A stretch of 64,000 bases of DNA from Escherichia coli. GTDB lineage: Bacteria > Pseudomonadota > Gammaproteobacteria > Enterobacterales > Enterobacteriaceae. The notes beneath the pieces are model-generated. The model ran no database searches. It was not told the DNA's origin and saw only the letters and a program-made list of their open reading frames with translations. How positions within the stretch are numbered: position 1 is the first letter of the stretch; each line of letters opens with the position of its first letter. Location: NCBI RefSeq assembly GCF_030013595.1, contig NZ_CP122768.1. The stretch is one strand, 5' to 3'. The position numbers and the translations under genes were made by a program. Shown in pieces: positions 12,986-30,488 of the stretch.

Positions 12986-13061
12986 TGGTGCCGATAATAG
13001 GAGTCGAACCTACGACCTTCGCATTACGAATGCGCTGCTCTACCAACTGAGCTATATCGGC
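12986..13061 (-). tRNA. thrW: tRNA-Thr (anticodon CGU), thrW-like; island integration site at its 3' end
   Basis: Reverse complement reads GCCGATATAGCTCAGTTGGTAGAGCAGCGCATTCGTAATGCGAAGGTCGTAGGTTCGACTCCTATTATCGGCACCA: cloverleaf-compatible, anticodon loop ttCGTaa, CCA end. Confidence 0.93.
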
Positions 13062-19439: not shown

Positions 19440-20897
19440 GTGTCTGAACTGTCTCAATTATCTCCACAGCCGCTGTGGGATATTTTTGCCAAAATCTGTT
19501 CTATTCCTCACCCGTCCTATCATGAAGAGCAACTCGCTGAATACATTGTTGGTTGGGCAAAAGAGAAAGGTTTCCATGTCGAACGCGATCAGGTAGGTAA
19601 TATCCTGATTCGTAAACCTGCTACCGCAGGTATGGAAAATCGTAAACCGGTCGTCTTACAGGCCCACCTCGATATGGTGCCGCAGAAAAATAACGACACC
19701 GTGCATGACTTCACGAAAGATCCTATCCAGCCTTATATTGATGGTGAATGGGTTAAAGCGCGCGGCACCACGCTGGGTGCGGATAACGGCATTGGTATGG
19801 CCTCTGCACTGGCGGTTCTGGCTGACGAAAACGTGGTTCACGGCCCGCTGGAAGTGCTGCTGACCATGACCGAAGAAGCCGGTATGGACGGTGCGTTCGG
19901 CTTACAGAGCAACTGGTTGCAGGCTGATATTCTGATTAACACCGACTCCGAAGAAGAAGGTGAAATCTACATGGGTTGCGCGGGGGGTATCGACTTCACC
20001 TCCAACCTGCATTTAGATCGTGAAGCAGTTCCAGCTGGTTTTGAAACCTTCAAGTTAACCTTAAAAGGTCTGAAAGGCGGTCACTCCGGCGGTGAAATCC
20101 ACGTTGGCCTGGGTAATGCCAACAAACTGCTGGTGCGCTTCCTGGCGGGTCATGCAGAAGAACTGGACCTGCGCCTTATCGATTTCAACGGCGGCACACT
20201 GCGTAACGCCATCCCGCGTGAAGCCTTTGCGACCATTGCTGTCGCAGCTGATAAAGTCGACGCACTGAAATCTCTGGTGAATACCTATCAGGAGATCCTG
20301 AAAAACGAGCTGGCAGAGAAAGAGAAAAATCTGGCCTTGTTGCTGGACTCTGTTGCGAACGATAAAGCTGCCCTGATTGCGAAATCTCGCGATACCTTTA
20401 TTCGTCTGCTGAACGCCACCCCGAACGGTGTGATCCGCAACTCCGACGTGGCAAAAGGTGTGGTCGAAACCTCCCTGAACGTCGGTGTGGTGACCATGAC
20501 TGACAATAACGTAGAAATTCACTGCCTGATCCGTTCTCTGATCGACAGCGGTAAAGACTACGTGGTGAGCATGCTGGATTCGCTGGGTAAACTGGCTGGC
20601 GCGAAAACCGAAGCGAAAGGCGCATATCCTGGCTGGAAGCCGGACGCTAATTCTCCGGTGATGCATCTGGTACGTGAAACTTATCAGCGTCTGTTCAACA
20701 AGACGCCGAACATCCAGATTATCCACGCGGGCCTGGAATGTGGTCTGTTCAAAAAACCGTATCCGGAAATGGACATGGTTTCTATCGGGCCAACAATCAC
20801 CGGTCCACACTCTCCGGATGAGCAAGTTCATATCGAAAGCGTTGGTCATTACTGGACACTGCTGACTGAACTGCTGAAAGAAATTCCGACGAAGTAA
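19440..20897 (+). CDS. pepD: cytosol non-specific dipeptidase (aminoacyl-histidine dipeptidase)
   Basis: 485-aa ORF starting at GTG; VSELSQLSPQPLWDIFAKICSIPHPSYHEE... recognised as PepD. Confidence 0.92.
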   Translation: MSELSQLSPQPLWDIFAKICSIPHPSYHEEQLAEYIVGWAKEKGFHVERDQVGNILIRKPATAGMENRKPVVLQAHLDMVPQKNNDTVHDFTKDPIQPYIDGEWVKARGTTLGADNGIGMASALAVLADENVVHGPLEVLLTMTEEAGMDGAFGLQSNWLQADILINTDSEEEGEIYMGCAGGIDFTSNLHLDREAVPAGFETFKLTLKGLKGGHSGGEIHVGLGNANKLLVRFLAGHAEELDLRLIDFNGGTLRNAIPREAFATIAVAADKVDALKSLVNTYQEILKNELAEKEKNLALLLDSVANDKAALIAKSRDTFIRLLNATPNGVIRNSDVAKGVVETSLNVGVVTMTDNNVEIHCLIRSLIDSGKDYVVSMLDSLGKLAGAKTEAKGAYPGWKPDANSPVMHLVRETYQRLFNKTPNIQIIHAGLECGLFKKPYPEMDMVSIGPTITGPHSPDEQVHIESVGHYWTLLTELLKEIPTK

Positions 20898-20909
20898 TTA
20901 TTTGATTTG

Positions 20910-20941
20910 CTGCCGGATGGCGTTTAATCGTCTTCCGGCAG
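20910..20941. terminator. hairpin downstream of pepD
   Basis: ctgccggatggcg...cgtcttccggcag stem-loop right after the pepD stop. Confidence 0.45.
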
Positions 20942-20953
20942 TTTCATCCTTCA

Positions 20954-21508
20954 TTATCCTTCGATAAAAGCCATCCCTGTAAATGTCCGTCTCGGGTTGC
21001 CACGTTCAATCTGGTGATGGAACATTCGCCGCTGCGATTTCAGCACCGCGCTATTTTCCTGTTGCTGTTGTTCCAGCTTCCAGGCAATCAGCAATCGCGC
21101 CAGCAGCTTGTTAGCATGCCCAGAAACCAGTTTTTGCGCCCATGATGAGGCCGATACGGACTCGGACAAATCCACTGAATAGTGCCGCACCAACTTTCGC
21201 TTAATGCCCATGCGTTATCGCCATCCAGAGAAATCAGCGCCGAACGCAGCGTGTCAGAGTAGCGGCCCGTTTCTGTTTCCAGCACCGTTACCGCGACGTC
21301 TTGCCGGGTAAAAACGACCAACAGAGAATAACGCTGCGCCAATCGGGTAGCCGCGTCCGGGGTGTAAATCTGGCATCCCTACTACGCGCTGCATGTTGGG
21401 TAAATTTGCCGTGGTGTGTAATTGTTGAATCGCTAAACTCTCGATCCGCAGGTCATCAGATGCGATGGTAAATACCGCATCGGATAAGGGACGAATATAT
21501 TTGCCCAT
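20954..21508 (-). pseudogene. prfH: rtcB-like 5' fragment and prfH (release factor H) remnants, frameshifted
   Basis: 21254..21508 encodes an RtcB-like N-terminus (...[16 protein letters not shown]...); 20954..21342 encodes PrfH-like segments in two frames (...[51 protein letters not shown]). Confidence 0.65.
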
Positions 21509-21752
21509 GTATCATTCCATTTATACTCGTCATACTTCAAGTTGCATGTACTGCGACTCGAATTATTTAGAGTATATAAATATAAAAATCAGGAAATGGC
21601 AGACGAATCCAGGGCAAGAAAAAAGAATTAATCCTGGAAAGGTCTGCAAAGAGTCATTGATAAAGGATTTGTCATGATTTACCTCCTTGCAGTTTGTGGA
21701 ATAAGAAAACGCGCACATACCAGGCGGGTGTTATTTTCATTGCAAGCTGGAT

Positions 21753-22205
21753 TTAATGTTGCGGTTTATATCGCATAGAAAAATTAGTAAACCACGCTCC
21801 CCTGCATTCAACGCGCTGCTGCTTAACTGTCTGAAAACCATAACGTTCAAAAAAGGGTTTTGCGGTTATGCTGGCGTCCACCGTAAGTTCGGATTCAGAC
21901 TTAATCAAAGGTTTTAACAAAGCGCTGGCAACCCCACGGCGGGTGTATTCAGGGTCAACAAATAACATATCGATATAATGTTCAATGCGGGAAATAAAAC
22001 CAACCGGTTGTGCATTAATGATCGCAACCCACACTTGTGATTTCGCGAGTTTCTCCTTCCAGCGAGATTCGTCAATCTGCGCCCAGGCGGCAATTTGTTG
22101 TGGTGAATAATGCTGACTGGCGGTCATCGTAACCGCTCTAATGAAAATAGCGCATAGTTGCTGAAAATCGCCAGGCTGATAATCTCTTATTTGTATGTTA
22201 TTCAT
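21753..22205 (-). CDS. yafP: GNAT-family acetyltransferase YafP
   Basis: 150-aa ORF; last gene of the dinB-yafN-yafO-yafP arrangement. Confidence 0.85.
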   Translation of the reverse strand: MNNIQIRDYQPGDFQQLCAIFIRAVTMTASQHYSPQQIAAWAQIDESRWKEKLAKSQVWVAIINAQPVGFISRIEHYIDMLFVDPEYTRRGVASALLKPLIKSESELTVDASITAKPFFERYGFQTVKQQRVECRGAWFTNFSMRYKPQH

Positions 22206-22960: not shown

Positions 22961-24016
22961 TCATAATCCCAGCACCAGTTGTCTTTCCATTTGCGGGTCA
23001 AGCAACGTCACATGCAGCCCCACCAGCCGCACACCGCGCCCGCCGCGACGTTCATCCCAGGTTTTACGCGCGGTGGCAATTAAGTCAGCTTTATTCAGCC
23101 GCGGCCAGACGTGCTCCTGAGTGGTTTGCTGAAAATCGTCGAACTTTAATTTCACCCCCTGGCGAGCAATCAGTAAATCAGGTTTCACCTTTGCCAGACG
23201 GCGTTCAAGTTCCGGATACAGCCGCTCGATAATCGCTTCACATTCAGACCAGTGATGAATATCTTCCGCCATCGTGCGTTCCACGCCGACGGATTTTCGT
23301 AACCGTTCGCTGTTAACGTCGCGCTCGTCAATCCCCTGACTACGCTCCCACAAAATGCGGCCAAATTTGCCAAAACGTTTGAGCAGAGTCACCAGATCAC
23401 ACTTTTGCACATCACCGCAGGTCCGCAGCCCCATCGCTTCCAGTTTTGCCGCCGAGACTTTGCCGACGCCGGGAATTTTTGCCAGCGGTAAGGTTTGCAG
23501 AAATGCCGGAACTTCTGCCGGCGTAATCACAAACTGGCCGTTGGGTTTATTCATGTCGGAGGCGATTTTAGCGAGAAACTTTACTGGTGCCACGCCCGCA
23601 GACGCCGTCAGTTGCAGCTCGTTGAAGATTGTCTGGCGGATTTCCTGGGCGATGAGGGTCGCAGAACCGTGGCAATGGACGCTATCAGTAACATCGAGAT
23701 AGGCTTCATCCAGTGACAACGGTTCAATACGCGAGGTGTAGCGCGAGAAGATTTCACGGATATGATTTGAGGCTTCTTTGTAGGCGTCAAAGCGCCCCGG
23801 AAGCAAGGTGAGATGTGGGCATAATTTGAGCGCCATCCCAGTAGGCATAGCGCTACGTACGCCAAATTTACGCGCGGGATAATTGGCGGTGCTGATCACC
23901 CCCCGACGTTCGCGGCTGCCGCCAATAGCAATAGGGATATCGCGCAGGGCGGGATTGTCGCGCATCTCCACTGCGGCGAAAAAGCAGTCCATATCCACAT
24001 GAATGATTTTACGCAT
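22961..24016 (-). CDS. dinB: DNA polymerase IV (Y-family translesion polymerase)
   Basis: 351-aa [36 protein letters not shown]... classic Y-family motifs. Confidence 0.95.

Positions 24017-30387: not shown

Positions 30388-30488
<101 letters not shown>

Follow-up and report, generated by a model that had tools for sequence, protein, structure and literature searches.

The DNA analysed is a 64-kb stretch of an E. coli chromosome (the window), in which the interval 20954-21508 occupies most of the 855-bp spacer separating pepD from yafP. This interval is filled by three overlapping open reading frames (ORFs) of the minus strand. Read on that strand, the rtcB2 ATG has its A at position 21508, and the stop codon of prfH lies at 20954-20956; the coordinates proposed in the first-pass annotation were thus exact, running from the stop codon of one gene to the start codon of the other. 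The features of the region are listed below.

19440-20897, plus strand: pepD
20910-20941, no strand assigned: hairpin CTGCCGGA...TCCGGCAG in the spacer between the pepD and prfH stop codons
20954-21119, minus strand: PrfH C-terminal fragment, residues 151-204 and the stop codon at 20954-20956 (NCBIfam, tblastn)
21116-21119, no strand assigned: junction of deletion 2 (blastn offsets, alignment, 80-bp junction query)
21120-21301, minus strand: PrfH middle fragment, residues ~32/33-94 (NCBIfam, tblastn, alignment)
21302-21308, no strand assigned: junction of deletion 1 (blastn offsets, junction sequences)
21302-21508, minus strand: RtcB2 N-terminal fragment, codons 1-69 (NCBIfam, tblastn)
21522-21576, no strand assigned: 55-bp imperfect palindrome TATACTC...GAGTATA, putative short ERIC/IRU form (inverted-repeat search)
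21753-22205, minus strand: yafP
22961-24016, minus strand: dinB

The dinB, yafN, yafO and yafP genes are carried by the minus strand of the window. The stop codons of pepD and prfH are convergent and separated by 56 bp; the hairpin in this spacer, read directly from the sequence, was unflagged by the terminator scan because it is devoid of a T run. The same scan returned just two terminator-like matches, both unconvincing. No sigma-70-like promoter was detected in a scan of 20850-21800 and no RNA family was found by Rfam in or near 20954-21508. At the Rfam gathering score, the window contains a tRNA (12989-13061, minus strand, 71.8 bits) and the ES036 (CssrF) sRNA (30409-30451, minus strand, 43.1 bits). 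The latter lies inside an apparently complete Flag-2 (lateral flagella) cluster, which begins beside dinB, covers 24087-64000 and gave NCBIfam matches to MotA, FliD, FlgK, FlgE, FliI, FliF and FlhB; K-12 has kept only remnants of this cluster. The yafNO genes are carried by the window, K-12 and BL21 and are missing from strains C236-04A and 789. In strains 503829 and C236-04A, yafP comes directly after dinB and the yafN-yafO toxin-antitoxin pair is missing. Approximately 78 bp downstream of the yafP stop codon, ahead of the ERIC element and rtcB2, a 15-codon ORF (MTNPLSMTLCRPFQD; 21628-21675, minus strand) stands behind a perfect Shine-Dalgarno sequence (AAGGAGGT). This putative ORF is unvarying across six aligned alleles, intact and deleted, and could code for a small protein or a leader peptide.

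The palindrome at 21522-21576 is located 14 bp upstream of the rtcB2 start codon. Members of the ERIC family are 127 bp long, have a conserved core and are bounded by inverted repeats of 7 bp with TA ends (PMC2229807). The terminal repeats TATACTC/GAGTATA are present in the window and the core is missing, which is compatible with a short form of the ERIC/IRU repeat. K-12, O157:H7, C236-04A and 789 have a 127-bp element at this place, with 72 bp extra, and the short form is found in the window, in BL21 and in those intact strains examined whose pair is chromosomal. The 72-bp core of the K-12 element presumably matches the ERIC1R and ERIC2 primer sequences. Whether the element is long or short shows no link to deletion 2.

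Fragments of RtcB2 and PrfH

The first-pass annotation had recognized an RtcB-like N-terminus and pieces of PrfH in several frames, and the NCBIfam models and tblastn both agree with this reading. The ORF 21508..21254(-) matches the RtcB family model NF007153 over positions 1-69 of 379 (E 3.2e-28) and the model of PrfH-associated RtcB, TIGR03073 (release_rtcB), with an E-value of 2.1e-26. The ORFs 21342..21088(-) and 21211..20954(-) match the PrfH model TIGR03072 over, respectively, positions 31-95 of 200 (E 1.3e-26) and 143-200 (E 2.4e-15). When the RtcB2 and PrfH proteins of one intact strain were used as tblastn queries against the whole 64-kb window, these three fragments were the sole matches, and no second copy of rtcB or prfH was found elsewhere in the window. 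RtcB2 residues 1-69 were aligned to 21508-21302 with 95.7% identity (E 6.7e-39), and the middle and C-terminal fragments of PrfH gave E-values of 2.1e-41 and 1.6e-31. The similarity of the three fragments to RtcB2 and PrfH is therefore far beyond chance. The several frames are in fact two: the RtcB2 fragment and the C-terminal fragment of PrfH share one and the PrfH middle fragment is in the other. The RtcB fragment stands directly upstream of the PrfH fragments on the same (minus) strand.

By Pfam, which is insensitive to such short fragments, RtcB was given 23.4 bits, short of the gathering score (27), and both PrfH ORFs were unmatched; all three fragments were resolved by NCBIfam. The curated cut-offs are nevertheless far above the scores of the pieces: the RtcB ORF reached 98.8 bits against 407 for NF007153 and 92.8 against 271.8 for TIGR03073, and the two PrfH pieces, in different frames, reached 93.4 and 56.6 bits against 166.65 for TIGR03072. 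The RtcB piece is thus a homologous fragment and no member protein of the RtcB family. It stops just short of the GNDIGCG metal-binding motif, after which its ORF runs on in a frame foreign to RtcB2 and ends with the stop at 21254, for a total of 84 aa. We take the fragment at 21302..21508 to be the counterpart of the K-12 pseudogene ykfJ.

Only 18% of RtcB2 and 57% of PrfH, and no catalytic residue, are retained in the window. In the intact RtcB2, GNDIGCG begins at residue 72 and His294 lies within AHGAGR, and in the intact PrfH the GGQ motif corresponds to residues 120-122 (Gln122); the metal-binding motif, His294 and Gln122 were all encoded by the deleted DNA.

The role of these residues has been described in published work. 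Colicin E3 and CdiA-CT cleave the 16S rRNA between A1493 and G1494; PrfH, a homologue of release factors, moves into the A site of ribosomes cut in this way and frees the nascent peptide via its GGQ motif (Gln122). Baranov et al. (2006) recognized a conserved operon made up of prfH and the partner gene upstream of it, carrying a deletion of ~1000 nt in K-12 MG1655, W3110 and O157:H7 and intact in CFT073, 042 and UTI89 (PMC1586002). Tian et al. (2022), who made use of Q122 mutants of PrfH and of the H294N mutant of the catalytic His294 of RtcB2, showed that, on ribosomes with a damaged decoding centre, PrfH first frees the peptide and RtcB2 then re-ligates the 16S rRNA; the rtcB2-prfH genes of K-12 were presumed to be inactive owing to their deletion (PMC9304027). 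According to Maviza et al. (2022), the intact operon of ATCC25922 protects against colicin E3, and knockouts of the truncated BW25113 genes have no colicin E3 phenotype (PMC9223846). The experimental loss of function concerns the K-12 allele and the colicins E3, E5 and D only.

Deletion junctions and haplotypes

The loci of HCP5S3_I2, K-12 JM83, the intact strain 503829, BL21 and C236-04A were compared, and breakpoints were deduced from pairwise blastn offsets (with 503829 as intact and K-12 as truncated locus) together with the junction sequences. In the intact reference 503829, RtcB2 and PrfH are, respectively, 379 and 204 aa long and their stop and start codons overlap by 4 bp. Strain 503829 is not alone in having an intact pair between pepD and yafP. 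When compared with such strains, the window aligns with 94-98% identity apart from two clean deletions. The presence of the pair at the same place in these strains supports the earlier proposal that rtcB-prfH was once intact here.

Deletion 1 has removed 1027 bp, from rtcB2 codon 70 to prfH codon 32, at an imperfect microhomology of 7 bp (CCCGGCA in rtcB, CCCGACA in prfH). Its breakpoints are identical in K-12, BL21, O157:H7 and 12 of the 12 deletion-bearing alleles examined, and the junction sequence TACCCGGCAAGACG and the 1027-bp offset are common to the window and K-12 JM83. Three sequence variants of this junction were observed (TATCCGGCA, TACCCGGCA and TACCCGACA); independent deletion origins were considered beside point mutation or recombination, and these are indistinguishable with the tools used. 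Deletion 2, of 169 bp, lies inside prfH at a 4-bp GCAT microhomology. It takes out PrfH residues 95-150, including GGQ, shifts the frame and is missing from K-12, BL21 and O157:H7. The claim that the module has decayed as in K-12 was therefore right for the 1027-bp deletion and its breakpoints; it did not extend to the additional 169-bp deletion or to the missing 72-bp ERIC core.

At least two flanking haplotypes carry junction 2. In C236-04A and 789, the segment 3' of this junction is identical to that of BL21, differs from the window at 6 of 156 sites, and is accompanied by the long ERIC form and by a junction-1 variant unlike that of the window. For this analysis, segments of 18 alleles were anchored by BLAST, a global MAFFT alignment having misplaced the 5' RtcB fragment relative to the intact genes. 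Since the SNP patterns of the anchored segments are mosaic, recombination would be the simplest account, the alternative being a recurrent deletion at the same microhomologies. Taken over both junctions, either recombination spread single deletions or the microhomologies were reused. The junction sequences suggest that slippage or illegitimate recombination between the microhomologies probably produced the deletions themselves.

Locus states and constraint in E. coli genomes

A megablast search of 5426 complete E. coli genomes with the pepD-yafP spacer revealed several length classes. The central 1020 bp lost in deletion 1 are present in 2715 genomes (~50%) and missing from 2711, and a compact, deletion-type locus was found in 2672 (~49% with deletion 1). 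The 165-bp GGQ segment lost in deletion 2 is present in 4756 of the 5426 genomes, whereas junction 2, as a full match to an 80-bp spanning query, was detected in 659 (12%). The genomes with the central segment (2715), those with the GGQ segment only (4756 - 2715, ~2041) and those with junction 2 (659) add up to 5415, against 5417 genomes with any match. As the three states account for nearly all matched genomes, deletion 2 is nested in the genomes with deletion 1, and it therefore came second. A strict 80-bp query for junction 1 found 1931 genomes, which is an undercount because SNPs near this junction push alleles past the E-value limit; 2672 (whole region) and 2711 (central segment missing) are the better estimates for deletion 1. 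The intact, once-deleted and twice-deleted states thus make up ~50/37/12% of complete E. coli genomes.

Strain MS 198-1 carries an intact rtcB-prfH pair at another chromosomal site (NZ_CP146687.1, 4138643-4140961), between an IS1 transposase and a metal-dependent hydrolase, and the central operon segment was also found in six plasmid-borne places. The module would thus be mobile at times, and a working rtcB-prfH copy may exist in some genomes at a place other than pepD-yafP. On NZ_CP104632.1 (100,861 bp, labelled as a plasmid of strain AHM21C2872I), a pepD-prfH-rtcB-yafP spacer of K-12 type was found with 96% identity; this sequence may represent a piece of a chromosome or a wrongly assigned contig.

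The constraint on the 177 retained codons was evaluated with 12 deletion-bearing and 6 intact alleles, a few alleles picked non-randomly and phylogenetically non-independent. Nonsynonymous and synonymous private variants were in a ratio of 12:9 in the deleted alleles and 2:12 in the intact ones (Fisher p=0.016). When all polymorphisms were pooled, the ratios were 15:24 and 8:28 (p=0.14), which is not significant, so that significance is reached by the private variants alone. Among the private changes of the deleted alleles are radical ones, namely Y4S, D19G, L20Q, W21R and F60L in RtcB2 and Y47C, P79L, W91L, R155L and R180W in PrfH; the window itself contributes W21R, F60L and R155L. The retained codons look freed from selection, and this counts as supporting evidence rather than proof because the sample is small and non-random and the pooled count is not significant.

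Reading of the locus and comparison with known alleles

Taken together, these results argue very strongly that the region is the remnant of a dead rtcB2-prfH ribosome-repair operon, left by two successive microhomology-flanked deletions. Deletion 1 came first and cost RtcB2 its residues 70-379 and PrfH its residues 1-31, together with the stop and start codons at which the two genes overlap. Later, deletion 2 removed PrfH 95-150 with its GGQ motif and shifted the frame, so that RtcB2 1-69, PrfH 32-94 and PrfH 151-204 are what is left. An RtcB2 without its metal-binding motif and His294, and a PrfH without Gln122, cannot work as a module. Moreover, the allele of the window has lost everything that K-12 lost and GGQ in addition, so that it is no less dead than its K-12 counterpart. 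Repair of colicin E3 damage would be impossible in the host strain, as in K-12.

No evidence contrary to the pseudogene status was found, yet the 84-codon ORF of RtcB2 keeps its ATG and its upstream region. Alternatively, this peptide (RtcB2 1-69 and an out-of-frame tail of 15 aa) or a shortened PrfH product could be expressed and have gained a new function. The ORF 21508..21254 is indeed open with its start codon in 12 of the 12 deletion-bearing alleles examined, and the deletion-type locus is kept in about half of E. coli genomes instead of being fully purged. However, the five radical private substitutions listed above for RtcB2 fall in the very codons of this fragment, the PrfH pieces are in two frames and without GGQ, the scanned region has no sigma-70-like promoter, and BW25113 remnant knockouts are indistinguishable under colicin stress (PMC9223846). 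Such a co-option is consequently judged highly improbable.

About as improbable is the idea that deletion 2 was not neutral, being selected or recurrent since it removes a K-12-type truncated PrfH (residues 32-204, GGQ intact) that would be harmful if expressed. Such an advantage, if true, would explain the frequency of 12% on at least two flanking haplotypes, and both the 659 genomes with junction 2 and the distinct flanks of C236-04A and 789 relative to the window are compatible with it. On the other hand, recombination, of which the mosaic SNPs are a sign, can carry one deletion across backgrounds, the K-12-type allele persists, apparently harmlessly, in ~2000 genomes, and the translation of the truncated PrfH is a supposition only.

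This pseudogene pair is ordinary and already annotated, and the K-12 truncation is already published as non-functional; the sole addition made here is a decay one step beyond K-12. No new system is revealed and the practical consequence is small. Toxins that cleave 16S rRNA, such as colicin E3 and CdiA-CT(ECL), are predicted to meet no RtcB2-PrfH defence in this strain, as in K-12, and the three-state locus is a clean marker from which the capacity to repair colicin E3 damage could be predicted in sequenced genomes.

Compared with named loci, the intact module (ATCC25922, CFT073, 042, and 503829 used here) has the same position and orientation as the window and is orthologous to it, with 94-98% nucleotide identity over the retained parts; it encodes an RtcB2 of 379 aa and a PrfH of 204 aa, whereas the window has fragments split across frames. 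The K-12 ykfJ/prfH pair (MG1655, BW25113, W3110, and also O157:H7) occupies the same pepD-yafP site as the window, with the same 1027-bp deletion and the same RtcB2 1-69 kept. In K-12, however, prfH is contiguous over residues ~32-204 and a full 127-bp ERIC element lies upstream, whereas the window has the extra frameshifting deletion of 169 bp (residues 95-150, GGQ) and the 55-bp short form. The double-deletion alleles of HCP5S3_I2, Nord1 and O166:H15 JNE21-003 are identical to the window in architecture. That of HCP5S3_I2 (99.9% identical) differs from it by 1 base in 855 bp, and its locus is annotated in RefSeq as 'prfH frameshifted; incomplete' and 'RNA ligase RtcB family protein', both partial pseudogenes. 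Relative to the other double-deletion alleles, R155L (CGG to CTG) in the PrfH remnant is private to the window. The allele of the window is thus a further-decayed derivative of the K-12-type allele, common to 659 of the 5426 genomes.
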